This document shows positions 2,891 to 58,056 of a stretch of DNA of 64,000 nt, one piece after another. The notes under the pieces are model-generated. The model saw only the letters and a program-made list of their open reading frames with translations. It had not been told where the DNA came from and did not search any database. Position numbers and translations under genes: made by a program. Position 1 is the first letter of the stretch. Each line of letters starts with the position of its first letter. The DNA comes from a virus (Duplodnaviria; Caudoviricetes), in IMG/VR virus record IMGVR_UViG_3300021399_000157, positions 3,032-67,031 of that record; one strand, written 5' to 3'.

Positions 2891-3178
2891 ATGAATATAA
2901 AGACTTTAGAAAAAAATAGATATTCAATTTTAATTAATGACTTATCTAGATGTTATTTTTGTGGTAAACCTAAAAATCACTTACACGAGATATACTTTGG
3001 TAAGAATAGAATTAACTCTATGAAATATGGTTGTGTAGTTCCTTTATGTGCCTCTTGTCATTCAAAAGTACACTCCAATGTAGAATTAGACCTAAAACTA
3101 AAAAAACTCTGTCAAAAAAGATTTATTGAAGTCTATGATGATGATTTCTTATCTATCTTTAGAAAAAATTACATATAA
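2891..3178 (+). CDS. Small zinc-binding HNH-fold nuclease-like protein
   Basis: CYFC...HLHEIYFG...PLCASCHSKVH. Confidence 0.7.
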   Translation: MNIKTLEKNRYSILINDLSRCYFCGKPKNHLHEIYFGKNRINSMKYGCVVPLCASCHSKVHSNVELDLKLKKLCQKRFIEVYDDDFLSIFRKNYI

Positions 3179-4365: not shown

Positions 4366-6834
4366 CTAATCTATTACTTCAACTTTCATATAAGTTTGTA
4401 ACATATCATTTGATAATGTTTGTCTTGCAGTATCTCCACTACCACCATACACATACATTCCAATTAAATCTCCTTCAGTTACATTACATATAATTTCACT
4501 TGCAACTAATTGACTTACACCTGTATTTGGTTCCCTTCTTAATTGCATTGTTATTGTAGTTCCATCTAAATTGCTTGCATTATAATTTTTTGTTATTCTC
4601 ATATACTTATCACCAGCAGCACCTTTACTAAATGCAAATGTACCACTTACCTTTATTCTTCTTACACCACTACCTATTAATACCTGTCCTGAACTTTCTG
4701 CTAATCTAGTACCACTAGAAATATAAGTTGTTAAATTTAATTTTGCATATGAATTACTAAAACTTTGACTTGATGGTAAGTGCATAACAATATAATTATT
4801 TTCTTCTGTCTTTGCTACTGCACCACTTCCACCTATTCCATAAATACCTATAACTGCTATGGTTGCACCTGATGTTGCATTACCCCCAGCAGTTACTGCA
4901 CTTGTTGATAAATCTCTGTGTTGCACTCTTGAACTTTCCCAACTAGCACTTTTTTCATATATATCTATTGTTGCATTTCTTATTTGTTGCCTTGAACTAG
5001 TATAACCATATACTAGACTTAAATTTACATTATTCATACCTGCTTTGTTATTAGGTACATCTACAAATTGAGAAGCATTGTTTCCCCAATTGTCTAGTTT
5101 ATATACAATTCTTAATGTATCAAAATCATATTTAGATTGTGACCAACTTATTGAACTTGTACTTGCTGCACTAAATGTACCTTCCCAAAGGGTAGTTACT
5201 TTAGCACCACTACCATTTTTGATTTCTGTCATTATATCTGTTGCTTCCCATTTTGTGCTATCAAATGTTCCTGTTGTTGTTCCTGTACATTTTTGTAATG
5301 AACCATTATATACACAATAATCTCCTGTTTCATATGTTGATGTACTATCATATCTAGGTGTTCCTGTTAATCCAAATACTTCTACATTGTTTTCTCCATC
5401 TTCATCTGCTAGATTTAATTCTCCATTAATTTGTAAATCACTTTCACCTAAACTCATTGATGGTACTGCTTTATTTATTGTATATGTATAAACTAATGGT
5501 GTACTTATATTTGCATCAGTTACTTGTAATTCTATTGTGTATGATTTGTTATATACTGCAGTTAATACTAGATTTTCATCTATATACCATTTTGTTCTAT
5601 TTGTATTATCATCATAGGTTACATTAAAGTCATATAGATTACTCCAATCTCCATCACTTTCTTTATACCTATATGATGCATATATTCCATTACCTGTTAC
5701 TCCATTGATGTTATCAGGTTGCATTGTACCTTCAAATGTTGCTCTTGTAGTACCACTTAAATCTGTTCTTTCTACTAATTGCCTTGTTAGAGTTATTGGT
5801 GTATATGTTTCATAACTATCATATTCATCATTAAATTGCATTGAATAATCTCTACTATCAGTTATTGTTATAGTTACTATATTAGATGTCATTGCATTTT
5901 GAAAAGTATAATCAAAATTATATGATGTACCACTTAAATTTATTGTATTTGTTAAATCTCCACATTTAAGTGTTATCTTTGATAATGTTGCTCCATCGTG
6001 ACTTTCTAATGTCATTTGGTATCTAGGTTTACTTAATCCTAATATTGCTTTAGTCATACTTGAACCAATAGCATTTATTACATTTGTATCAGTTTCTTCT
6101 TTAGTGAAATTTGAATATGTAGGACTACTTGTTGCAGGTACACTTAATGTAAATGATGTTGTTTTTGACCCTATATTGGTACTTCCTGAATATGTTATAC
6201 AAGTTATGGTACAAGTCTTACTACTTTCTGTTGAACTAAATTCATTTATTAAACTACTAGGTGGTGTCCAATCTACTGATGCTCCTACACCTGTTGCTAT
6301 CGTTCCTGTTGAATTCCCAAAACTATATGTCAATGTATGAGTAAAACTATTACTTGCTCTATTGGTATAAATTGTTTGTGTCATACCTAATTCAAAACCT
6401 GTATATAATACACTAGGTTGACTTGCTCTAGGTATTGTTGGTAATGAAAAGTTTACTGAACCTGAACCACTTACTGAACCTGATGAACTTATTTTATATG
6501 TGATTGTATCACTATATGTTCCTGTTGTACTATGTTTTACTGAATAAGTATATGTTGCTATTGTCTTTTCACTACCTTTTGAATAACTTGTTGAACCTAG
6601 ATTTGTAGAATAACTTGTAGTACCACTTGTATGATTATAAATACCACTTATTCCACAAGAACCACTACTGAATGAACCATAACTACCATTACCATATAAT
6701 CTTAACTGAATACTTATATTAGATGTATTCCCACTTGTACTTTGTGAGTTGTATTTACCATATATCCTTAATTGAGAATATGTAGATGTACTTATCGTTC
6801 CTAATTTTTGATATGAAGTTGTTAATGTTGCCAT
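4366..6834 (-). CDS. Tail fiber / receptor-binding protein (DUF859-like N-terminus)
   Basis: Ser/Thr-rich beta protein; LPTIPRASQP..TNRASNSFTHTLTY; CBM-like YDSTSTYETGDYCVY segment; last tail gene. Confidence 0.75.
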   Translation of the reverse strand: MATLTTSYQKLGTISTSTYSQLRIYGKYNSQSTSGNTSNISIQLRLYGNGSYGSFSSGSCGISGIYNHTSGTTSYSTNLGSTSYSKGSEKTIATYTYSVKHSTTGTYSDTITYKISSSGSVSGSGSVNFSLPTIPRASQPSVLYTGFELGMTQTIYTNRASNSFTHTLTYSFGNSTGTIATGVGASVDWTPPSSLINEFSSTESSKTCTITCITYSGSTNIGSKTTSFTLSVPATSSPTYSNFTKEETDTNVINAIGSSMTKAILGLSKPRYQMTLESHDGATLSKITLKCGDLTNTINLSGTSYNFDYTFQNAMTSNIVTITITDSRDYSMQFNDEYDSYETYTPITLTRQLVERTDLSGTTRATFEGTMQPDNINGVTGNGIYASYRYKESDGDWSNLYDFNVTYDDNTNRTKWYIDENLVLTAVYNKSYTIELQVTDANISTPLVYTYTINKAVPSMSLGESDLQINGELNLADEDGENNVEVFGLTGTPRYDSTSTYETGDYCVYNGSLQKCTGTTTGTFDSTKWEATDIMTEIKNGSGAKVTTLWEGTFSAASTSSISWSQSKYDFDTLRIVYKLDNWGNNASQFVDVPNNKAGMNNVNLSLVYGYTSSRQQIRNATIDIYEKSASWESSRVQHRDLSTSAVTAGGNATSGATIAVIGIYGIGGSGAVAKTEENNYIVMHLPSSQSFSNSYAKLNLTTYISSGTRLAESSGQVLIGSGVRRIKVSGTFAFSKGAAGDKYMRITKNYNASNLDGTTITMQLRREPNTGVSQLVASEIICNVTEGDLIGMYVYGGSGDTARQTLSNDMLQTYMKVEVID

Positions 6835-23132: not shown

Positions 23133-24500
23133 CTATTCTTGCTCTTCTTCCTCTTCAGGTTGTTCTTCTCTTGCTACATTATTAGGTTCATTAGTTCCTA
23201 ATAAATCATCTATATCAGGATTTGCTTCTTTAATCTCTTTAACCTTCTCTTCACTTTCTTCCATTGTTTCATCAGGTTTTATCCAATTTCTTAATTCTGC
23301 ATCACTTATTACTTGTTGTGCATATCCTTGTAATAGATGTGCAAACTCTTCATTTGTATCTTCTAGTAATGTATAACTCCAATCAAATGATACTTCATAA
23401 TCACCTTGTGGTGATAGATTATATGCATTTGCTAGTACATTACAAGCATAAAAGAAATCATCTAATCCTTTTTCTATACTACTTCTCATATCATCTACTA
23501 TTGTAAATGTATCATACATTGCTCTTCTTATTTCAGTTGCAGTTGCATTTTGTGTATTTATTTCACTTATTATTCCTGCACTAGTTCCTATCTCGTGTTC
23601 TAATCTTCTATATAGTTCTTGTAATCTCATTGTATAATCTCTAAATTGAGGGTCAAATACTTCAAAGAAACTATCTATACCACTATCTATCTTTTTAAAT
23701 AATCCATTTTGTGGTAATGCATCTTTACCATTAAACATTGTTACATCTGCACCAACAAATGCCTCTTTTAGTTCATACTCTCTTAATAGTTGTTTCATTG
23801 TTTCTTTAACTTCTAGGATTGTTGCATCACATCCATAAGTTATAGGTACTCCATATTTATCGTTTGTTCTTCTGTTATTGATAGGTGATTTAATATATCC
23901 AAATAAACATCTATCACAATTTGTTATTGTTCTTACTTCTTGAATATTTTGCCAAAAATCAGGTGTAGGTATCTTATTACCATTATCATCTGTATATTGT
24001 TGTGTCATTACCATATCACCATTATCTTGTAATTGGTAATTAGTCCATCTTAAATATACTTTTTTAGATATTGTACCTTGTATTACTTTTCTTTCTGCTA
24101 ATATAGTTGCACCTGTTATTAGTTCTCCATCCATATTATCTATAGTCATTCTATTTTGTGGTACTAGATTATAGTATATCTTACCACCTTTTACATATGG
24201 TACTATTACAAGTCCACCATATCCAAATGCCATTGATGTAAACTTTTTTGCTTTCTTCCACATTGATTGACCTGTTTGATTAAGTAGTTCTACTCTTTTG
24301 TTTTCACCTAATACATTCATTACACTATCATTAACAACATAATTTGCTAACTTATTACTAAAGATAGCATTAAAGTTTATATCATCTATCTTTTCATACT
24401 CTAATGCATATTTAGAGTTATCATCTATTTCTTTTTCAGTTGTTTGAGTTGTGATTTTAAACACATTCGTTAAAATCCATATCCATATATTTTTAAACAT
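23133..24500 (-). CDS. Portal protein (A118/SPP1-like)
   Basis: 455 aa between terminase and minor capsid; ATATEI motif. Confidence 0.8.
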   Translation of the reverse strand: MFKNIWIWILTNVFKITTQTTEKEIDDNSKYALEYEKIDDINFNAIFSNKLANYVVNDSVMNVLGENKRVELLNQTGQSMWKKAKKFTSMAFGYGGLVIVPYVKGGKIYYNLVPQNRMTIDNMDGELITGATILAERKVIQGTISKKVYLRWTNYQLQDNGDMVMTQQYTDDNGNKIPTPDFWQNIQEVRTITNCDRCLFGYIKSPINNRRTNDKYGVPITYGCDATILEVKETMKQLLREYELKEAFVGADVTMFNGKDALPQNGLFKKIDSGIDSFFEVFDPQFRDYTMRLQELYRRLEHEIGTSAGIISEINTQNATATEIRRAMYDTFTIVDDMRSSIEKGLDDFFYACNVLANAYNLSPQGDYEVSFDWSYTLLEDTNEEFAHLLQGYAQQVISDAELRNWIKPDETMEESEEKVKEIKEANPDIDDLLGTNEPNNVAREEQPEEEEEQE

Positions 24501-24501
24501 C

Positions 24502-26040
24502 CTATTGTCCTCTCTTCTTCCATATATTATTTAATGCATAGCGTGTGGCATCTATGCAATGGTTGTTTGCATCCACATATCCACTTATGTAATTGTCATC
24601 TTTATCCTTTTCATATTCATATGTACTAAACTCTTCAGTTGCTTCAGGGCATCTTTTAGGGTCTATAACTATTTTTGCTAATGCACTTAACCACTTCATA
24701 GAATATTCAACACTTCCTGCACCTTTTTCTGCACCTCTCATAGAAGCACCATAACTTCTAAAATCTCCTATTGATTTAGGTTCTGCACTATCACTTATAA
24801 TCATATCATTCTCTGTAACTCCCTTTAGGTTCTTTAAATCCTCCCATACATCTGCATTACTTTTCTTATTTACCACATACTCATCAAATATATATAAAGT
24901 CCTAGTTGATGGATTAAACGAACACTTTATCCAAGCAAGAGGGTCAGGAAACCATCCAAAGTCCATTCCCATATAAATATAATCAAAGTTCTCTATCTCT
25001 TTATCAGTTATTTCTCTTAACTCTATATTTTCAAATACTTGACCACCTACACCTGTCATTAATCCTAGATATTCATTCTCATATAACTTCTCATTGATGC
25101 TCTTTAGAAATTCTGCTTCATCTATAAATGCTTGACCTAACCACTTTTTAGGTACTGCTCTATAATCACTTAAGTGTACTAGTCTAGTATCTTTTGGTAT
25201 TAACTTCTCTATATTTACAAAGTGTTGTGTACTTGCAGGTGTATTATATGAATAGAATTGAATAAAATCATCTCCACCTCTTATTAAGGATTGATTTATT
25301 TTTCTTGTTTCATTCATTCCTGCAAATTGGTCAAACTCTTCATACCAAGTTATACCAACATACATATCTTTTGGTGTCTTTAATGATTTAATCTTTCCAT
25401 AATCATCTGCACCTCTAAAGTATATCTTTTGACCTGTACTTAATTTAGTTATCTCTAAAGGTGATTTAGTAAACTTATAATCCTCTTTAATATGTGGATA
25501 TGTTTCTCCTAGTGTATCTACTGCCCATTCTAATTGACTAAATACACTATCCTTTAATGTATCTTTAACTTTTCTTAATACAACACAACACATTTTAGGA
25601 TTTTGTTCTAGTAGTTCAATTATCTTTTCACTTATAAAAGATGATTTGGTACTACCTCTTCCACCTTCTAGATAAAACTCTCTATAATCTCTATCATCTA
25701 TTGCTCTATTTACATCTGCAAAACTAGATGCTATATCTTTAGCAGGTAATACAACATATACTTCTTGCTTCTGTTCATCGTGGTCTTTCTTATCCATTAA
25801 ATCTTGTATTATTTGATAGTTCTTACTACTACCACTTACTGCACCTTTTATTAATCCTAAAGTTGCTAACTCTTGATATGTCTTACCACTTTTTTGCTCT
25901 GTTTGATTTAATAGCATCTCTAGGTCTTGTATCATAGTTCTTTTTCTTCTTCTTGCTTCTCCTGATGCTATTCCACCTTTCTTCGCTTCCTCTTCAGTTA
26001 ATTTGTGTCCTTGAGGTATTAGGTTTTGTTCGTTTGCCAT
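24502..26040 (-). CDS. terL: Terminase large subunit (PBSX-like) with N-terminal TerS-like KGG extension
   Basis: Walker A GGRGSTKS, Walker B WYEE, nuclease GMDFG and NHCIDATRYA; N-terminal MANEQNLIP...AKKGGIASGEARRRKR. Confidence 0.92.
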   Translation of the reverse strand: MANEQNLIPQGHKLTEEEAKKGGIASGEARRRKRTMIQDLEMLLNQTEQKSGKTYQELATLGLIKGAVSGSSKNYQIIQDLMDKKDHDEQKQEVYVVLPAKDIASSFADVNRAIDDRDYREFYLEGGRGSTKSSFISEKIIELLEQNPKMCCVVLRKVKDTLKDSVFSQLEWAVDTLGETYPHIKEDYKFTKSPLEITKLSTGQKIYFRGADDYGKIKSLKTPKDMYVGITWYEEFDQFAGMNETRKINQSLIRGGDDFIQFYSYNTPASTQHFVNIEKLIPKDTRLVHLSDYRAVPKKWLGQAFIDEAEFLKSINEKLYENEYLGLMTGVGGQVFENIELREITDKEIENFDYIYMGMDFGWFPDPLAWIKCSFNPSTRTLYIFDEYVVNKKSNADVWEDLKNLKGVTENDMIISDSAEPKSIGDFRSYGASMRGAEKGAGSVEYSMKWLSALAKIVIDPKRCPEATEEFSTYEYEKDKDDNYISGYVDANNHCIDATRYALNNIWKKRGQ

Positions 26041-26186: not shown

Positions 26187-26486
26187 TTATTTTCTTTTCT
26201 TATTTTCTTTTTCCCATTCACTATATGTAAAACTATCCCATTTTGAATGTGTTGCACCTGATTTACTTACAGGTGGTTTTTTATATTTTTCTTCAAATCT
26301 ATCTACTAGATTATCCACATTATCTTGCCACCAACTACCATAGTCTGCTACATTTTCATTATCATAGTAACTTTCTTCTTCAGGTTCTTTTGCTTTTGCT
26401 ACTGCTTTCTTGCTTGTTTTTTGTATCTTACCTTTGCTACTTGATGCACCTCTTCCACCAAATAATTGTATATTTAACTCTAACAT
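26187..26486 (-). CDS. FGGRG-leader protein 5 (unknown function)
   Basis: Starts MLELNIQLFGGRGASSS. Confidence 0.75.
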   Translation of the reverse strand: MLELNIQLFGGRGASSSKGKIQKTSKKAVAKAKEPEEESYYDNENVADYGSWWQDNVDNLVDRFEEKYKKPPVSKSGATHSKWDSFTYSEWEKENKKRK

Positions 26487-27148
26487 TATTTTAACCTCAC
26501 TTTCACATATATATTACCATTCTTACTCCCTACACTCTCAACTTTATACTTTTGATTTCTTGCAAGTAATACCTCTTTTTGTGGGTCTCTTGCTTCTACC
26601 TCTCTTATCCTTTTAGTAGGTTTCTTCATTATATCCAATCCTCTAGTCTTTTTATTTGTATGTATTTCCATAATGATTGGTTTTGTACTACCAAAAAAGT
26701 ATTTGTTATTTTCTGCTATTCCTAAACTCTTTGTTGTACTCATAAATCCTTTTTCTGTATGGTCTTTATTAATGGCATTGTTTATCCTGTTATTTACTTG
26801 TTTTGCTATACCTTGTGAATATGCACCATTTCCTTTTGAATAAACTCCATATACTAGTTCTTCTACCATATTTGCATATTCACCATCTGTCATATTTCCA
26901 AATATTGCACTTGCATCTGTGGTTCTATATAATATTTCATCCTTTATTTTGTCATTAGTAAGTATATCTAGTTCTTTTAAATATACTTTATCATCATCAG
27001 TAAAGTCTATCTCATCATCTAATCCTCTTAAGTAGTTATTTATCCACATTCCTTGACCACTTACATAATATTCTAAAGACATATCATAGTTGCCTGTTGA
27101 TGATGTAGCACCTCTGCCTCCAAATAGTTGTATATTAAGTTTTAGCAT
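26486..27148 (-). CDS. FGGRG-leader protein 4: R-S-E clade (VIP2/C3-like) ADP-ribosyltransferase
   Basis: MLKLNIQLFGGRGATSS; INNYLRG, LYRTT, GFMSTT, QKEVLLARN. Confidence 0.85.
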   Translation of the reverse strand: MLKLNIQLFGGRGATSSTGNYDMSLEYYVSGQGMWINNYLRGLDDEIDFTDDDKVYLKELDILTNDKIKDEILYRTTDASAIFGNMTDGEYANMVEELVYGVYSKGNGAYSQGIAKQVNNRINNAINKDHTEKGFMSTTKSLGIAENNKYFFGSTKPIIMEIHTNKKTRGLDIMKKPTKRIREVEARDPQKEVLLARNQKYKVESVGSKNGNIYVKVRLK

Positions 27149-27157
27149 ATATACCTC

Positions 27158-27706
27158 CTAAATCATCTTAACTCTTTTGTTATCAAACACTATATATTCT
27201 CTTTCTTTACCTTGTACATTTAATTTTGCTATTACTACATCATACTTTTTACTTTTAGCAATTTTCTTCAAATCTATATTACCCTTCATTAATTGGTGGT
27301 TCCCTATTTGTTGCCATCTTTTCATATTTTGTATAAATGCTTCTTCTCCATCTAACTTACCTATAGGACTTGCATATTTATATAACTCTTTAAAATCTTT
27401 TACTTTTGCAAAATCCAATGGTTTATTTACATTTATTTTAGCATTATAAACTCTACCTTTTGCACCTTTTTTATCAAAAAACATACTATCTGTTTCTATT
27501 CTTTCATAACTAAAATCATCTGCAAATTGTTTGCTATCTGTAAAATAAATACCATATTCACCTGATGATGTATTTAATCCTGATAAAGATATATCAAAAC
27601 TTTCTATGTTAGCATTTGGACTTCCGTGATATAATGTTCTTTTTATTATGCTATTACTAAAACTTGCACCCCTACCTCCAAATCTTTGGATATCTAAATC
27701 TAACAT
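27158..27706 (-). CDS. FGGRG-leader protein 3: H-Y-E clade ADP-ribosyltransferase-like (ART-PolyVal-like)
   Basis: MLDLDIQRFGGRGASFS; LYHGS, GIYFT, EYIVFD. Confidence 0.7.
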   Translation of the reverse strand: MLDLDIQRFGGRGASFSNSIIKRTLYHGSPNANIESFDISLSGLNTSSGEYGIYFTDSKQFADDFSYERIETDSMFFDKKGAKGRVYNAKINVNKPLDFAKVKDFKELYKYASPIGKLDGEEAFIQNMKRWQQIGNHQLMKGNIDLKKIAKSKKYDVVIAKLNVQGKEREYIVFDNKRVKMI

Positions 27707-27708
27707 AT

Positions 27709-28095
27709 CTATCTACCTATTGCTTTCAATATTTGTTTTTTTCTTTCATCTATTATGTTTTTAGCATTTGCTATTGCTTCTTTTCTAGTTGAACCTGTTG
27801 TTATCATTGCCCCATTTGTTTCATTATTTGTTCTTACTACTGCTACATATTTACTACTACCTGCCCTACCTAAATATGGTCTGTTTTTTGCATATGCTTC
27901 TTGTTCACTATTGAATACACCAACATCTATTGTTTTATATCTAAAAGTAACACCCTTTACTTCTATATCTTCTCTTCTACCATCCTCATCCATATTTCTT
28001 GTTGCAGTTGTAAAAGTTGCACTTTTAGGTTCTGTATCTGCATTGCTACTACTAGAACCTCTGCCTCCAAACATTTGAATGTCTAGTTTAATCAT
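27709..28095 (-). CDS. FGGRG-leader protein 2 (unknown function)
   Basis: Starts MIKLDIQMFGGRGSSSS. Confidence 0.75.
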   Translation of the reverse strand: MIKLDIQMFGGRGSSSSNADTEPKSATFTTATRNMDEDGRREDIEVKGVTFRYKTIDVGVFNSEQEAYAKNRPYLGRAGSSKYVAVVRTNNETNGAMITTGSTRKEAIANAKNIIDERKKQILKAIGR

Positions 28096-29119
28096 TCTTC
28101 TTCATCCTCTCTGTTACTTTATTTTCATAATATATTACCTCTATGTCTCCATAGTTATATTCTAATTTACCACCATACACTAGTATTTTAGATGGTTTTA
28201 TCTTTTTAATCATTGCATCCATTCCATCTTTCCATATCTTTAGTGCATCTGTATTTCTTTTTACTCCAATTGTACTTATTGATACTATGCTTCCTTCAGG
28301 TATTCCATCAAAACAAAAATCAAATGTTTCTTCTTCTGCCCAACTTATTGTAGGTATTACCTTTATTCCACATCTTTGATAATATTGTCCAATTAGTCTG
28401 CTTCTATATATATTCCATATCTTCATTGCTATAGGCATATCCATATATAAACTAAAATCAGGACTTAATATGCAATCATAATCTCCTAATACTTCAACAT
28501 ACTCTTGTGGATTATTCCATATTCTTTCAAATTGATAATCATCTAGATAAAAATGTATTCCTACATTCTTGTTTTCACTTGTTTTAGCATAATTAAATCC
28601 CATCAAATCTTTAGGTACATAATTATCATTCTCTATAATAGGCATTTGGTATTTACCATCACAGGCATCTGCATCAAATAGTTCTAGGTTATATGCTTCA
28701 TTGGTTCTTTCTCTTTCATTGATTTTTATTTCAGGTACTTCTATTTCAGGTACTTCTATATCAAATCCATACTTTTCCATATCTATATCTAGGATTTTGT
28801 TTATCTCATCCTGTACCATATCTAAATCCCAAGCAGTATTCATTGTTAATTGATTATGTACTAATAAATATGCTCTTCTTTGCTCATCTGTTAGATAATC
28901 TAACTTAATTACAGGTACTTCTTTTAATCCTAAATCTTTACAAGCAAGGTATCTACCATTACCTTCTACTATCTCATTATTCCATATTGCTATAGGGTCA
29001 TTCATACCAAACTCTTCAATAGATGCTTTTATTTGGTCTATTTGACTTTGTGGATGTAACTTTGCATTTTTATCATATAATCTTAAAGTATCTATGTTTA
29101 CATATTCTATTTGTAACAT
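28088..29119 (-). CDS. ParB/Srx N-terminal domain fused to DUF4417-like domain
   Basis: N-terminal QIKASIEEFGMNDPI..GNGRYLA; C-terminal HFYLDDYQFERIW, PDFSLY.DMP, VIPTISW, FCFDG. Confidence 0.8.
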   Translation of the reverse strand: MLQIEYVNIDTLRLYDKNAKLHPQSQIDQIKASIEEFGMNDPIAIWNNEIVEGNGRYLACKDLGLKEVPVIKLDYLTDEQRRAYLLVHNQLTMNTAWDLDMVQDEINKILDIDMEKYGFDIEVPEIEVPEIKINERERTNEAYNLELFDADACDGKYQMPIIENDNYVPKDLMGFNYAKTSENKNVGIHFYLDDYQFERIWNNPQEYVEVLGDYDCILSPDFSLYMDMPIAMKIWNIYRSRLIGQYYQRCGIKVIPTISWAEEETFDFCFDGIPEGSIVSISTIGVKRNTDALKIWKDGMDAMIKKIKPSKILVYGGKLEYNYGDIEVIYYENKVTERMKKND

Positions 29120-29121
29120 AT

Positions 29122-29523
29122 TTATCTCCTAAAATTATATTCTTTCCCTGTTTTTCTATCTCTTATATATATTGTTCCCTTATATTGATTATATGAAACA
29201 TAAGGGTCTTTAATTCCACCATCTAATGCATCTTGATATATTCCACCTAGTTCTTTTAAATATGACATTGTATATCCACCTGTATTGCTCATAATATATT
29301 TATTGTTTACATATAATGCATTATCAAATGATGTAATATCTAATCTATTTGATAATTCTTTTCTTATTTCTACATTATCACTTAATCTATATCCTGTTGG
29401 ATTATTGTATTCATCTCTTGCTTTTTTTGTCCATTGTTTTGTTCTATTTGTTATTTTTACATTTATATTGCTACTAGAAGAAGCACCTCTGCCTCCAAAC
29501 ATTTGTATATCTAGTTTTATCAT
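29122..29523 (-). CDS. FGGRG-leader protein 1 (unknown function)
   Basis: Starts MIKLDIQMFGGRGASSSS. Confidence 0.75.
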   Translation of the reverse strand: MIKLDIQMFGGRGASSSSNINVKITNRTKQWTKKARDEYNNPTGYRLSDNVEIRKELSNRLDITSFDNALYVNNKYIMSNTGGYTMSYLKELGGIYQDALDGGIKDPYVSYNQYKGTIYIRDRKTGKEYNFRR

Positions 29524-40944: not shown

Positions 40945-42288
40945 TTGAAAAAAGTTATACGTGTCGGCGGATATGCTAGGGTATCTACTGAGGAACAAAA
41001 AAAATACGGATATTCTATAGACGCTCAGGTAGATAAAATAAAAAAGTATTGTGAATTAAAAAATTATCAACTTGTAGATATGTTTATAGACGAAGGCTTT
41101 ACTGCTTCTAATATGAAACGTCCTAGACTTCTGGATCTTCTTAATAGTTTAGATAAAATAGATGCTATAGTATTTACTCGTCTAGATAGATTTTCTCGTA
41201 ATGTATTAGAAGCTAATAAAATGCTAGCTACGTTACAAAAAAATAGCGTTAGTATGATAGCTATAGAAGAAGAAGATATAAATACTACGGACGCTGACGG
41301 TCTCTTTATGTTTCAATTAAAGGTATCGTTAGCTGAGCGTGAAATAAAAAAAACGTCGGAACGTATCCGCTCTGTATTTGAGTATAAAATCAAAGAAGGA
41401 CAGGTTATATCTGGAGTTACTGCTCTAGGTTATAAGATAGCTACTGTAGACGGAATAAAACGTATGGTTAAAGACGAAGACGAAGCTCCAATAGTTATGG
41501 ATATTTTTAATTACTTTCTAAAATACCAGTCTATACGTGTTGTTACTGATCTTATAAATAAAAAATATGATATAAAAAAGAGTTATCAAGTATACAACCA
41601 CTTATTAAAAAACGAAATATATATAGGTAAGTATCGTAATAATGATAATTTTGTAGATCCGTATATTGATAAAGATACTTTTGATAAAATACAGAAACTT
41701 ATAACTAAAAATATCCGTACTGGAGATAAAAAGTTTACTTATATATTTAGCGGTCTTATTCGTTGTCCTGAGTGTAAAAAGCTACTTACTGGTACTAGAA
41801 CTCTATATAGAGGTCGTTACTACTATTATTATCGTTGTAATAGGCACTACATTTCTAAATGGTGTAGTATGAATAAAAGCTGTAGTGAAAACTTGATAGA
41901 AAAATATCTACTAGAAAATATAGAAACTTTAGTATCTGATCGTATAGCTTATATTAAATCTGTTGAGCCTGCGGATAATGTAAATATTGAAAAAGAAATA
42001 AAGTCTTTACGTGCTGAGCTTGATAACTTAAATTATATCTTTATGAAAAAGCGTATTTCTGTAGCTGAGTATGATCGTCTTTATGAAAAAACCGAAAGTA
42101 AAATAAAAAAGTTGGAGTTATCTCCTTCTAAAAGTGCCGATACTTCTCATTTAACGGCGTTTTTATCTAGTGGCTGGAGAAACGGCTACGATATTATGAA
42201 TAGAGAAAATAAGCGTACTTTATGGCGTAATTTAATTAAAGAAATACACTGTGATAGAGACTATAATATAGAAATTATTTTTTACTAA
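40945..42288 (+). CDS. Large serine recombinase (integrase)
   Basis: YARVST catalytic Ser, RLDRFSRN, recombinase domain, CPEC..C..C zinc ribbon, coiled coil; TTG start. Confidence 0.95.
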   Translation: MKKVIRVGGYARVSTEEQKKYGYSIDAQVDKIKKYCELKNYQLVDMFIDEGFTASNMKRPRLLDLLNSLDKIDAIVFTRLDRFSRNVLEANKMLATLQKNSVSMIAIEEEDINTTDADGLFMFQLKVSLAEREIKKTSERIRSVFEYKIKEGQVISGVTALGYKIATVDGIKRMVKDEDEAPIVMDIFNYFLKYQSIRVVTDLINKKYDIKKSYQVYNHLLKNEIYIGKYRNNDNFVDPYIDKDTFDKIQKLITKNIRTGDKKFTYIFSGLIRCPECKKLLTGTRTLYRGRYYYYYRCNRHYISKWCSMNKSCSENLIEKYLLENIETLVSDRIAYIKSVEPADNVNIEKEIKSLRAELDNLNYIFMKKRISVAEYDRLYEKTESKIKKLELSPSKSADTSHLTAFLSSGWRNGYDIMNRENKRTLWRNLIKEIHCDRDYNIEIIFY

Positions 42289-55047: not shown

Positions 55048-56352
55048 CTATACATCTGAACTATTTCCGCTTTGCTCGAACTCTGTATCTAGTTCTTTAT
55101 CTAGTAATAACTTTTGTATTTCTGCTTCTGCGTTTTCGTCTATTGCACTTTCTGGCTGGTCTGTTATATTAGCTGTTGTATCTGTATTAGGTGTATAAAA
55201 TTGATGCGTATTTGTATCGTATAGTACTGCTCCTAGTCCTACGTTGATTACGTCTAGTCCTTCTATATAATTCATATTTTCTTGTCTTCTGATTTCGTTT
55301 AGAGTTATCCACCCAGTTTCTTTAGCTGTTTTATATGCTTCGTATCTTTCTTTTACGTTTGCTTTTAGGATCTCTTTAACGTCAAACTCGAAGAACATTT
55401 TATTCTTTTCTTTTTCTAGTAATAGGTCTTTATTTAATGCTGTTGTAAAAGCCCTAACTATTGGATATATTGCTTCTTTAAATGTTAGATAGAAGTCGTC
55501 AGGGTGTATGTGAAATATATTATTTATTTCGTCCTGTAATGTCTTCTTACTTTCGTTTAATTGCATCTCCACTGAGCTATTACTAGCTTCTTGGAACTCT
55601 AACCCGTTATTTAATACTACTACGTTATCTGTACTATTAGCGTATAGGTTGTTCCACGCTTGCTTTAATACGTTTATTTCTTCTTGTCCTAACTTTCTTT
55701 GTGATTTTAGAAAGCCTTTTTTATTTCCTCCTGATTTAACTATATTTAGTTGATATAGTAACGTATTGAAGGCTGTCTCTAGTGCTGTTCCTACTTCTTC
55801 TGTTAGTCCTATTCCTGTAGCTCCGTCTTTTGTATTACGTAGCAATTTTAAAAACTCGTATTTTTGATAATTTTGTCCTTCTACTATCAAATAGAAGTCT
55901 TTATATATTGGTTTGAAGTTAGGTATAGCACTTACGTATATATCTTTTACGTAGAATAGTCCTGTTACGTCATTTCTATTTCTTCTGATATATGCGTATC
56001 CACCTTTTCCTAGTAGATAGTCTTCTACCATTGCTTTTTTCATTTGAAAAGCGTCTAGTGTGTCTCCTGTATCTCCGTTTAGTAAAGTTACTCTCGGATC
56101 GTCGTCCTTACTTTCTACTTTACCGTCTTTATACTTATATAGTTTTACTGGCATAGATGCTATGATGCCACTAATATAGTCTACTGCTCCTGATACTGCG
56201 GGTAGTGTTAAGGCTTGCTCTCTTGTTATTGGTTGGCTATTAAATAAAGCCTGCAATAAAATATCGTTAGCTGTTTTTTCTTCTGGTGTAGTTGTTGTAG
56301 ATGCTTCGTCTACTGTATTGTCTCTCTTTCTAAATCTATCGAATACTCCCAT
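55048..56352 (-). CDS. Portal protein, HK97 family
   Basis: IASMPVKLY, LLGKGGYAYI, TLNEIRRQEN. Confidence 0.92.
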   Translation of the reverse strand: MGVFDRFRKRDNTVDEASTTTTPEEKTANDILLQALFNSQPITREQALTLPAVSGAVDYISGIIASMPVKLYKYKDGKVESKDDDPRVTLLNGDTGDTLDAFQMKKAMVEDYLLGKGGYAYIRRNRNDVTGLFYVKDIYVSAIPNFKPIYKDFYLIVEGQNYQKYEFLKLLRNTKDGATGIGLTEEVGTALETAFNTLLYQLNIVKSGGNKKGFLKSQRKLGQEEINVLKQAWNNLYANSTDNVVVLNNGLEFQEASNSSVEMQLNESKKTLQDEINNIFHIHPDDFYLTFKEAIYPIVRAFTTALNKDLLLEKEKNKMFFEFDVKEILKANVKERYEAYKTAKETGWITLNEIRRQENMNYIEGLDVINVGLGAVLYDTNTHQFYTPNTDTTANITDQPESAIDENAEAEIQKLLLDKELDTEFEQSGNSSDV

Positions 56353-56367
56353 TTTCTCACCTCCTTA

Positions 56368-58056
56368 CTATATAACTTGGATAGCGAAGTCCATTTGATT
56401 TAGGAATACGTCTTGTTGTAGTAGATATATAGCGTTTAGCATTGAAACTACCATATCTACTTTTCCTGTTGATTTCTTCTTATGTACGTACATATTTTTA
56501 TTTGTGTCATACGTACAGCGTGCATTCTGGAAGTTAATCTCCAGAAGTGTATTATTTTCATATTGGAACTCTTTCGCTAGTATCTTTTCTTTTAGTAACT
56601 TTGTAGGTGGGTGTAATACGCTAGAATGCTGTCTGATTTCAACGCAGTTATATCCTGCTCTTTCTAGTTTCTGAGCTGTACTAAGTGCGTTCCACCTATC
56701 GTATCCTATAGCTTGGATCTGTACTCCGTATTTATCCTCTAGATTTAATATAAAGTCCTCTACTACTGCGTAGTCTATTACTTTATCTCCGCAGGCTATT
56801 ACTTTTCCTGATCTGATTAATTCTCTATAGTTTACCTTCTCTGTTACTGTCTTTTCTTCTATTCTTCCTTCTGGAATAAATGCGAAGCTGTCGGCTAATA
56901 CGTTGTTATCGTCGTCTACTGTTACCATACTTACGCTGGTATTATCGTTACTTTCTGATAAGTCAAGCCCTACATAAACTATTCTGCCTTTCCAGTCTAT
57001 TTTAGCTTGTTTGCATTCCTGCAAGTCTTTTACGTCTATATATGTTTCTGTTCCTGTTCCCTGATATATGATATTACAATGTTTTGTTACGAAGTTTTCT
57101 CTAGCACTTTCTACAGCTATTGCATAGGCTCTTTTCTTTACTAGGTCGTCCCAGATCTCTGGTATTTCTAGTGCTACTGGGTTGCTTTGTTTTAGGATCA
57201 TATCGTCCGTTTCCCAGTCCTTCGCCTTATCTGGCTCGTATAATAAGCTAAAGCGTGTTTCGTCCTTCTCTAGCCCGTCTAATACTTTTTTTGAGTACTT
57301 TACTTCGTCTTCAAACGGGTTATCTATTGTCGGGTATTTTGTGCTGATTATAAAGCCTAATTTATTTAGTATATTTAATTGTCCTGACTTCATACTCTCG
57401 ATAGCGTAACTTGTTGGTAAAGCTCCTGCTTCGTCTACTATGAAGGCGTTCGGTAATCTTCCGTCTAGTCTACTGGTAGAATAACTTAACGGAATGTACG
57501 TTACCTGAGTTGGCTTGAAAAGAATATAATCTCTCAGGATCTTAAATCTTTTCGTATCTTTGTATTCGTATATTAACGGTGAACTCCTGATTATTTCGCT
57601 TATTGCTTCTCTGACTTCTCTAGATAAGGCACCGTCTGGAGCTACACTAAAGAACTTACTAAACTTCGGCTCTGTTAAAAATAGAAGTATAAAAATAGTT
57701 GCTATTGTGAATGTTTTAAAGTTCTTTCTACATATCTCTAAAAGCCCTATTTCATATCTTCTTTTCTTTTCATTGTCTCGATACACAGTACAAAGAATAG
57801 CAATATAAAAAAGCCATTGATAACCTGCGGTACATTCGTATAGCGTCTGTCCTGCTTTTAGTCCCTTCGGCATTATTAACAGCTTTAAAATGTTATTCAC
57901 TTGTTTTAATTTCTGCTCGCTAATTTTATATTTGCTGTCTTTATCTTCGCAAATGTTTACGAAGTCCTGCATCTGCAATTTAACATATTTAGGAGTAGTC
58001 TTTTTGCTTATTGATAACTTGCAATATTCTAACGCTTTATTATGCATAGTCGTCAC
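56368..58056 (-). CDS. terL: Terminase large subunit (cos/HK97 type)
   Basis: ICRKNFKT, IVDEA, GLDLS, YDRWNA, GKVDMVVSM. Confidence 0.93.
   Translation of the reverse strand: MTTMHNKALEYCKLSISKKTTPKYVKLQMQDFVNICEDKDSKYKISEQKLKQVNNILKLLIMPKGLKAGQTLYECTAGYQWLFYIAILCTVYRDNEKKRRYEIGLLEICRKNFKTFTIATIFILLFLTEPKFSKFFSVAPDGALSREVREAISEIIRSSPLIYEYKDTKRFKILRDYILFKPTQVTYIPLSYSTSRLDGRLPNAFIVDEAGALPTSYAIESMKSGQLNILNKLGFIISTKYPTIDNPFEDEVKYSKKVLDGLEKDETRFSLLYEPDKAKDWETDDMILKQSNPVALEIPEIWDDLVKKRAYAIAVESARENFVTKHCNIIYQGTGTETYIDVKDLQECKQAKIDWKGRIVYVGLDLSESNDNTSVSMVTVDDDNNVLADSFAFIPEGRIEEKTVTEKVNYRELIRSGKVIACGDKVIDYAVVEDFILNLEDKYGVQIQAIGYDRWNALSTAQKLERAGYNCVEIRQHSSVLHPPTKLLKEKILAKEFQYENNTLLEINFQNARCTYDTNKNMYVHKKKSTGKVDMVVSMLNAIYLLQQDVFLNQMDFAIQVI

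Follow-up and report, generated by a model that had tools for sequence, protein, structure and literature searches.

What does a ParB_N-DUF4417 fusion protein do in a row of phage genes whose other products carry the short sequence GGRG near their N-termini, when it has no such tag itself? The question is raised by gene 28088-29119 (minus strand) in a stretch of 64,000 nucleotides, positions 3,032 to 67,031 of the Caudoviricetes record IMGVR_UViG_3300021399_000157, and this whole stretch is called the window below. An earlier note on this DNA, made from the sequence alone (the original prediction), had taken the gene to be the possible enzyme of a GGRG system and had stated that DUF4417 genes are often followed by small open reading frames (ORFs) starting MGGRG. 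Our analysis demonstrates that the enzyme-like gene and the tagged cargo genes form a two-part module under joint selection, in which one specific residue of the enzyme-like protein is paired with one specific residue of the tag. These observations point to DUF4417 and the GGRG tag being an undescribed enzyme-plus-tag system in hundreds of phages. Loci and proteins that have to be told apart are given by our own L and P numbers.

Co-occurrence of DUF4417 genes and GGRG ORFs

From our analysis of the 80 IMG/VR loci that encode relatives 44-67% identical to the window protein, 77 were found to have one to four GGRG ORFs, with either an MGGRG start or a Prp-like leader, just downstream of DUF4417. 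A second set of 80 loci was drawn from genomes of different bacterial species (Bacillota, Bifidobacterium, Coriobacteriia, Veillonella, and bins labelled Bacteroidales or Saccharibacteria), and in 67 of them a GGRG ORF starts within the interval of -28 to about +900 nt relative to the DUF4417 stop; the background is 0-2 chance GGRG matches in six frames across the remainder of each locus. Most of the exceptions have variants of the tag (e.g., MGSRGAS, MGGRN, MNGGGA, and MGRGRGGG). For the reverse direction, IMG/VR was scanned for DNA able to encode MGGRGAS, with Ser as TCN, and DUF4417 was sought within 3.5 kb upstream on the same strand. Where the match was a true ORF start, DUF4417 was present upstream in 51 cases and absent in 2, with 3 more having too little upstream DNA, while matches that were not starts gave 7 with DUF4417, 28 without, and 6 with too little upstream DNA. 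Of the MGGRGAS loci, L106 and L127 have a DUF4417 gene at another place in the locus, and the match in L156 appears to be a high-GC ORF that arose by chance. The original prediction had named a lack of enrichment as evidence that would speak against it, and the neighbourhood statistics gave the contrary, a strong enrichment of GGRG-starting neighbours.

A shared phage backbone was considered as the cause of this synteny and ruled out by a terminase-matched control. Among the 41 phages with a large terminase (TerL) 40-80% identical to that of the window and at least 3.5 kb of upstream sequence, 40 are without both DUF4417 and tags, one has both, and none is discordant, which is indicative that DUF4417 and the tags come and go as a unit. 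The tag is encoded in 232 distinct 24-nt forms, in which each of the Gly codons occurs and Arg is specified by six codons of both families. As the tag codons vary freely, selection acts on the tag peptide, and conservation at the DNA level (e.g., a binding site or a ribosome-binding mimic) is ruled out.

The pairing extends to actinobacteriophages after correction of mis-called gene starts. In three phages the gene after DUF4417 is annotated with a start that is too late, and its frame is open upstream into the end of the DUF4417 gene:

L459:1318-2097, Mycobacterium phage StarStuff; corrected start MGGRGSAGSGG
L082:1346-1873, Mycobacterium phage Pukovnik; corrected start MGGRGGAGGPG
L460:1482-2132, Gordonia phage MinecraftSteve; corrected start MGGRGSGGGG

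Each corrected start is followed by a long Gly-rich linker, and the MinecraftSteve gene is annotated as a VIP2-like ADP-ribosyltransferase toxin. Many records of cluster A-type actinophages may share the mis-call. The link between DUF4417 and MGGRG ORFs that the original prediction had put forward is, thus, very strong in both directions, survives the terminase-matched control, and reaches actinobacteriophages.

Two further loci show other arrangements. In Dorea phage DO134P1, a stand-alone DUF4417 is preceded by a gene (L084:4026-4895) that starts ...CFVIMPISDQGDYP... and whose product presumably resembles nucleoside 2-deoxyribosyltransferase-like or TIR-like proteins. A Bacteroidales-labelled contig (L274) has two DUF4417 genes, 2008-2640 and 4621-5211, which lie 2 kb apart and have PGFS and PNYS variants, and each copy is followed by a differently tagged ORF (MNGGGAVSTG and MSGTSDKTSGS).

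Covariation of Asp221 with the tag arginine

The original prediction described the protein as a ParB/Srx domain fused to a domain with the motifs HFYLDD, PDFS, and PTISW, and Pfam, PHROG, the predicted fold, and conservation all agree with that description. The gene, its domains, and the residues discussed below are as follows:

28088..29119, minus strand: ParB_N-DUF4417 fusion, untagged, 343 aa, proposed tag reader/enzyme (Pfam, PHROG, NCBIfam; AlphaFold predicted local distance difference test score, pLDDT, 94)
28781..29119, minus strand: ParB/Srx N-terminal domain binding nucleoside triphosphates (NTP), residues 1-113, with GxxRxxA (G53-A59) at 28943-28963 (VIA-align, Foldseek)
28091..28663, minus strand: DUF4417 domain, residues 153-343, small TIM-like barrel (Pfam E 2.8e-79; domain model; structure matches; covariation)
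28553-28555 (H189), 28538-28543 (D193/D194), 28457-28459 (D221, in PDFS), and 28343-28345 (S259, in PTISW), minus strand: conserved residues at DUF4417 strand ends

The motifs HFYLDD (189-194), PDFS (220-223), and PTISW (256-260) are the most conserved parts of the DUF4417 family, and they come right after predicted beta strands, which is the usual site of TIM-barrel active sites. In an alignment of 69 homologues, conservation is complete or at least 90% at H189, D194, P220-D221-F222-S223, and P256; D194 (invariant) and D221 (at least 90%) stand at consecutive strand ends. W260 of PTISW is also part of the conserved core. The invariant polar residues at the barrel strand ends are H189, D194, S223, N236, and R239.

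We then matched 217 unique DUF4417 domains, one by one, with the tags on the neighbouring ORFs, and Arg-less tags were classified by eye. Asp221 is accompanied by an Arg tag in 206 domains, no domain without Asp221 has an Arg tag, and 9 of the 217 domains combine a non-acidic residue 221 with a tag that lacks Arg at position 3. Asp221 is therefore present in 206/206 enzymes with Arg tags vs 2/11 with Arg-less tags (Fisher 2e-14). In a scan of all well-aligned columns, 221 was by far the best predictor of the tag state, and the second-ranked column was Ser259 of PTISW (164/206 vs 1/11, Fisher 3e-6), which lies after the next barrel strand. Several residues replace Asp221, each with its own tags: Gly221 is paired with MNGGGA or TNGGAS (L274, L280, and L287), Gln221 with MGGATKS (L369), and Asn221 with MGGNGASS (L372), ...HLD-GGNGASSS (L379), M(S/A)NGSN (L371), and, in Zaria-like mycobacteriophages, MGRGRHSG or MGRGRGGG. 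On the domain tree, residue 221 changed at least seven times, and in 6/6 phylogenetically independent pairs 221 and the tag change together in essentially all pairings and never in opposite directions (sign test p = 0.03), with the qualification that independent changes at 221 are few and that the tree was built with column 221 included. A search of IMG/VR for further Asp221-less enzymes (alignment A5) returned ordinary PDFS relatives and one PNFS enzyme, L379.

Since Asp221 and Arg3 covary, DUF4417 is likely to bind the tag in a pocket; the simplest reading of the sequences is that Arg3 would lie in a pocket lined by Asp221 and Ser259. The original prediction held that DUF4417 recognises the free N-terminal Gly. 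Recognition of the tag is supported by the covariation, but this evidence bears on Arg3 and not on Gly1.

The fusion protein, its cargo, and its neighbourhood

The DUF4417 assignment (PF14386) covers residues 153-331 with an E value of 2.8e-79 and 265.3 bits against a cut-off of 28.9, while Pfam ParB_N matches at E 6e-5 with 23.4 bits, slightly below its curated cut-off of 26.3. PHROG 620 and 15396 (ParB-like) match residues 1-150 (E 3e-40 and 2e-33), PHROG 940 ('nuclease') covers the full-length protein (E 5e-116), and TIGR00180 of NCBIfam scores 24.9, below its cut-off of 58.45. The AlphaFold model from the 69 homologues (mean pLDDT 94) has a ParB-fold part, a disordered linker, and a compact beta/alpha barrel in that order, and the model of the DUF4417 domain by itself has a pLDDT of 95.5 and a predicted template modelling score (pTM) of 0.91. 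When compared with ParB N-terminal domains using VIA-align, residues 1-113 match pNOB8 ParB-N (5k5d) with Z 12.4 and a root-mean-square deviation of 3.1 over 112 residues, and further matches are KorB (Z 11.1), PadC (Z 11.0), and sulfiredoxin (Z 9.8); Foldseek has ParB, Noc, and SerK among its matches for this domain. The nucleotide-binding motif GxxRxxA is present (G53, R56, and A59). No helix-turn-helix (HTH) or ParB C-terminal Pfam match was found in the protein, and the ParB-like structure matches are confined to residues 1-113. The protein has the fold of a ParB N-terminal domain and is not a canonical ParB partition protein. The original prediction had ParB localising the protein to the genome; this finds no support, as only the N-terminal NTP-binding (Srx-like) domain is present, without an HTH or DNA-binding domain.

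ParB_N is fused to 117 of the 228 unique DUF4417 domains. The family goes by the PHROG label 'nuclease', and databases mislabel it 'DNA modification methylase'. Two proteins (P0031 and P0052) have tandem DUF4417 copies, of which the N-terminal one is without the HF.DD acid pair; their resemblance to a pseudo-dimer hints that the domain may act as a dimer. In P0139, DUF4417 runs in frame into ...KTMGGRGSGGG and a cargo body; enzyme and cargo may be naturally fused here, or a stop between them may have been lost and the gene call extended over it.

In the window, the DUF4417 protein starts MLQIEYVN and has neither leader nor tag. As the original prediction had noted, it is embedded among tagged genes; it has five genes with a leader and GGRG in its neighbourhood and sits between 29122-29523 and 27709-28095. 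Downstream of the module, the terminase and portal genes follow directly:

29122..29523, minus strand: tagged cargo gene 1, 133 aa, leader MIKLDIQMF (29497-29523), tag GGRGASSS (29473-29496), body family unassigned (no Pfam or PHROG match)
27709..28095, minus strand: tagged cargo gene 2, 128 aa, leader MIKLDIQMF, tag GGRGSSSS (ORF and motif)
27158..27706, minus strand: tagged cargo gene 3, 182 aa, leader MLDLDIQRF, tag GGRGASFS, ART-PolyVal ADP-ribosyltransferase body (PF18760, E 1.6e-14)
26486..27148, minus strand: tagged cargo gene 4, 220 aa, leader MLKLNIQLF, tag GGRGATSS, ADP-ribosyltransferase exoenzyme body (PF03496, E 4.4e-14)
26187..26486, minus strand: tagged cargo gene 5, 99 aa, leader MLELNIQLF, tag GGRGASSS, lysine-rich body (ORF and motif)
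23133..26040, minus strand: large terminase (24502-26040) and portal (23133-24500), directly downstream of the module (Pfam Terminase_3/3C, SPP1_portal)

The stop of 29122-29523 abuts the ATG of DUF4417, and the DUF4417 stop overlaps the ATG of 27709-28095, which suggests that the genes of the module may be expressed in a coupled manner. The five cargo leaders follow the pattern M(L/I)xL(D/N)IQ(L/M/R)F and precede GGRG(A/S), which fits the L27/Prp motif; the published cleavage motif is MLxx(D/N)LQ(F/L)F'A (PMC9405229). No Prp gene was found in the 67-kb virus record. The five cargo genes abut one another with no immunity gene between them, and no MuF match was found.

Across the loci, the cargo amounts to 274 unique proteins in 71 clusters, in which the consensus G-G-R-G-A-S-S-G is followed by unrelated bodies. 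The recognisable bodies are of the toxin/effector type, such as the ART-PolyVal and ADP-ribosyl exotoxin of the window and a glutamine deamidase (Gln_amidase); the commonest cargo family (130 aa) has a borderline Ntox24 match, and other bodies carry HNHPS...S..D (JAB-like) or HELGH (HExxH) motifs. The start is directly M-GGRG in 207 of the 274 proteins, about 25 have Prp-like leaders, and a few have other short leaders or a pre-domain of ~70 aa. Because the hosts of actinobacteriophages are without the L27 extension, the Prp leader is best regarded as one optional way of exposing the tag. In leaders other than the Prp type, the residue before GGRG varies (F, C, N, K, E, H, A, G, D, and S). One subclass of cargo has a conserved pre-domain of ~70 aa before GGRG/GGNG (L026, L028, L080, L104, L110, L260, L270, L271, and L379) and bodies of ~180 aa with HNHPSGG...S..D (JAB/RadC-like), and its pre-tag residue is not conserved.

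The Walker-A loop of TerL (window 25650-25680, minus strand) reads GGRGSTKSS and recurs in related terminases; it was judged to be a chance look-alike of the tag and excluded from all counts. The window also holds a second phage-like unit (42700-64000), with ORFs the size of a terminase (56368-58056) and a portal (55048-56352), a GC content of 0.33-0.36 vs 0.26-0.31 for the first unit, and neither DUF4417 nor the GGRG tag. Between the two units lies an ORF of integrase size at 40945-42288 (plus strand).

Possible action of DUF4417 on the tag

To compare structures, the domain-only model was superposed on 48,161 representative chains. The three best matches of the barrel belong to one superfamily, i.e., ArcTGT (1iq8, Z 10.2, 171 residues, 3.0 A), DpdA (7ui4, Z 9.6), and QTRT2 (6fv5, Z 8.9), with the top superpositions spanning 167-171 residues, and the full-length model gave Z 9.9, 9.3, and 8.9 with the same proteins. 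The next matches were a designed barrel (Z 8.2), bacterial TGT (7.6), and unrelated barrels (6.4-7.5), so that other natural barrels reach at most 7.6. The ESM Atlas gave no usable match for the barrel. The likeness to TGT/DpdA, which comes from models, is a fold-level lead and not family membership. DpdA depends on DpdB, an ATPase of ParB fold, to replace guanine in DNA with preQ0; in DpdA, Asp95, Asp130, and Asp256 serve as general acid/base, base-binding residue, and nucleophile, and the second Asp and a His bind the Watson-Crick (guanidine-like) edge of the base (PMC10164549). DUF4417 resembles the DpdA/DpdB system of Salmonella Montevideo and the TGTs in the barrel superposition, and its conserved Asp residues at consecutive strand ends (D194 and D221) may correspond to Asp residues that, in TGT as in DpdA, stand at the mouth of the barrel, act as general acid/base, and bind the guanidine-like edge of the base. 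The partner of the pocket Asp would be an arginine of a protein tag for DUF4417, in contrast to a base for TGT/DpdA. DpdA/DpdB consists of a transglycosylase and a separate ParB-fold ATPase, whereas here a ParB-fold domain is fused to the barrel. By this architectural analogy the window fusion appears to mirror DpdB plus DpdA, and DpdB, the ATPase needed by DpdA, is a better analogy for the ParB part than localisation to the genome. Classical 7-deazaguanine modification is unlikely, as the 67-kb record has no match to the Pfam families of QueC, FolE (GTP cyclohydrolase I), or TGT, though supply by the host is possible.

Our favoured explanation is that the cargo proteins are interchangeable toxin/effector-type bodies, including two ADP-ribosyltransferases here, and that each would expose GGRG(A/S)SS, mostly by loss of the initiator Met and in the window by the host protease Prp cutting an L27-mimicking leader. 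The exposed tag would enter the conserved pocket atop the DUF4417 barrel, where Arg3 would be held by Asp221 with Ser259 adjacent, and DUF4417 would then act on the bound tag as an enzyme and not as a passive receptor. In view of the fold and the fused ParB-type NTPase, the chemistry that we favour would be akin to the base exchange of TGT/DpdA: the Arg guanidinium or the terminal amine of the tag would be joined to the sugar C1' of a nucleic acid, most likely phage DNA, and the effectors would travel with the phage genome. We infer with good support from the sequences that the tag binds the DUF4417 pocket once its N-terminus is exposed, with exposure by Prp being probable here, and with moderate support that DUF4417 is catalytic and acts on the tag. 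The full stepwise model, with ParB_N-DUF4417 as the dedicated partner of the GGRG tag acting on the bound cargo tag, seems to us evenly balanced between being right and being wrong. Ligation of cargo to packaged DNA, or to a capsid component, had been suggested as a possibility in the original prediction. For the last step, in which TGT-like chemistry would link the tag to DNA and the genome would take the effectors along, the TGT/DpdA-like fold lends plausibility to a reaction on DNA, and yet we regard this step as a tentative proposal that is unlikely to be correct as it stands. Similarly doubtful is its most explicit form, in which DUF4417 would be related to DpdA in a pared-down version and would work as a protein-nucleic acid transglycosylase, powered by the DpdB-like ParB NTPase that is fused to it. 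Such an enzyme would remove a base from phage DNA and install the Arg3 guanidinium or the Gly1 amine of an effector instead, with Asp221 corresponding to the base-binding Asp of TGT/DpdA and arginine mimicking the guanidine edge of guanine, and toxins or anti-defence enzymes, tethered covalently to each genome, would enter the next host with it.

Several results weigh against this explanation. In comparison to TGT and DpdA, DUF4417 is half the size and is without sequence similarity, a zinc subdomain, an evident nucleophile Asp, and preQ0 genes in the record. Foldseek with the domain model gave no match at E <= 1e-3 and only weak, mixed TIM barrels, with a TGT probability of about 0.9; the DUF4417 profile gave none at E <= 10 among PDB sequences, PF01702 (TGT) none at E <= 1 in the virus record, and hhalign against four bacterial Tgt sequences a probability of 0.1%. 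No conserved third Asp that could be the nucleophile was seen in the alignment of 69 homologues, and the protein ends at the last barrel helix (343) with no Cys/His cluster in its sequence. Two domains (L271 and L124) have Asp221 despite an Arg-less tag, in a comparison where such tags were assigned by eye. A free N-terminal Gly, as assumed in the original prediction, is usual and may not be required, since in about 5-8% of the cargo the tag follows a pre-sequence of ~70 aa or an unusual short sequence. A published NTP-binding screen included a ParB-DUF4417 fusion, which is not among its reported binders (bioRxiv 10.1101/2025.10.10.680097). Lastly, neither the enzyme (APZ81899) nor the cargo (APZ81907) of phage Str01 is listed in its virion proteome of 12 proteins (PMC6195288), the sole virion proteome of a carrier phage that we found and too short a list to settle a role in the virion.

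Conceivably, DUF4417 could be a non-covalent adaptor, which would bind the tag in the manner of a receptor for a capsid-targeting sequence and hand the cargo to the procapsid, portal, or terminase, or would serve as a chaperone or inhibitor of the toxins until assembly, leaving the tag chemically unchanged. The co-occurrence and the Asp221/Arg3 covariation indicate binding and not catalysis, the module adjoins the terminase and portal genes, and the internal proteins of phage T4 carry short N-terminal targeting peptides. However, the barrel has an enzyme-like set of invariant polar residues (H189, D194, S223, N236, and R239), an NTP-binding domain is fused to DUF4417 in half of the cases, and enzyme and cargo are both missing from the Str01 list, so that we consider an adaptor possible and on balance unlikely. 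An enzyme that processes or activates the tag without any DNA, either by placing a small group (nucleotide, sugar, or acyl) on the N-terminus or Arg3 or by trimming pre-sequences, and thereby switches on, stabilises, or masks the toxins, is a rather unlikely alternative. It would agree with the occurrence of the ParB/Srx fold in small-molecule phosphotransferases (e.g., sulfiredoxin, SerK, and SbnI) and with the need to remove some cargo pre-sequences if the free end matters; nevertheless, the best structure matches are enzymes that act on nucleic acids, three quarters of the tags need only Met removal, and the unconserved residues before GGRG in non-Prp leaders make a single peptidase specificity unlikely. 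That the two are unrelated neighbours, with DUF4417 being a DNA-modifying enzyme or nuclease for phage or host DNA and the tagged genes being morons in the same cassette, is very improbable: the 'nuclease' label, the mistaken 'DNA modification methylase' label, the DpdA-like fold, and the ParB_N-methyltransferase fusions at the same genome position in related phages would suit it, but the association is near-absolute both ways across two phyla, gain and loss are joint on one terminase backbone, a pocket residue covaries with a tag residue, and no 7-deazaguanine synthesis genes are in the record.

Phages are known to carry comparable systems. Like the module described here, the MuF polymorphic toxins of temperate phages (PMC5576092) and the polyvalent proteins of phages and conjugative elements (PMC5512222) have highly variable effector bodies in the head/packaging module, and their domain repertoire is also found here (ART-PolyVal, ADP-ribosyl exotoxin, glutamine deamidase, metallopeptidase, and JAB-like). 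Those effectors belong to larger proteins, either with a large MuF domain or another domain attached or with several effectors in a single giant chain, whereas here they are separate small proteins with an 8-residue tag and a dedicated enzyme-like gene; the large trafficking domain and immunity gene of polymorphic/MuF toxins have no counterpart, the shared part being only 8 residues. The capsid-targeting sequence of T4 and the Prp substrates of staphylococcal phage 80alpha (PMC5744158, PMC9405229) are, as here, short N-terminal peptides on unrelated late proteins. Unlike the GGRG tag, the T4 peptide is removed by the prohead protease and is without a dedicated enzyme gene, and the Prp leader of 80alpha is on structural (capsid and scaffold) proteins, whereas here it is on cargo and most of the homologous tags are leaderless. 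ParB_N-methyltransferase and other phage fusions of the ParB-CTPase fold share the N-terminal domain and the position upstream of the terminase genes. A preprint lists the ParB-DUF4417 fusion as phage-enriched, without function or tagged neighbours (bioRxiv 10.1101/2025.10.10.680097), and the papers on polyvalent proteins and MuF toxins describe the same effector domains and neither this tag nor this enzyme. In our literature search, no description of the DUF4417-GGRG pairing was found, and none of the top-ranked phage-related papers contains MGGRG or GGRGA. New here are the control matched for terminase, the test of codon use, the form of the tag with a Prp leader, the corrected gene starts in actinophages, the parallel with DpdB/DpdA, and the Asp221/Arg3 covariation, of which the last makes the idea directly testable.

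The module was found in phages of gut Firmicutes, streptococci, and bifidobacteria and in cluster A mycobacteriophages. If the explanation that we favour is true, it would be a widespread and so far unnamed phage module that consists of one enzyme and an eight-residue label for exchangeable toxins and host-takeover enzymes. DUF4417 would gain a function, and many actinophage genes would have their start sites corrected. In essence, the module would represent a new principle of effector handling in viruses, and its tag and enzyme would be a minimal pair with which proteins could be loaded onto phage DNA or along with it.

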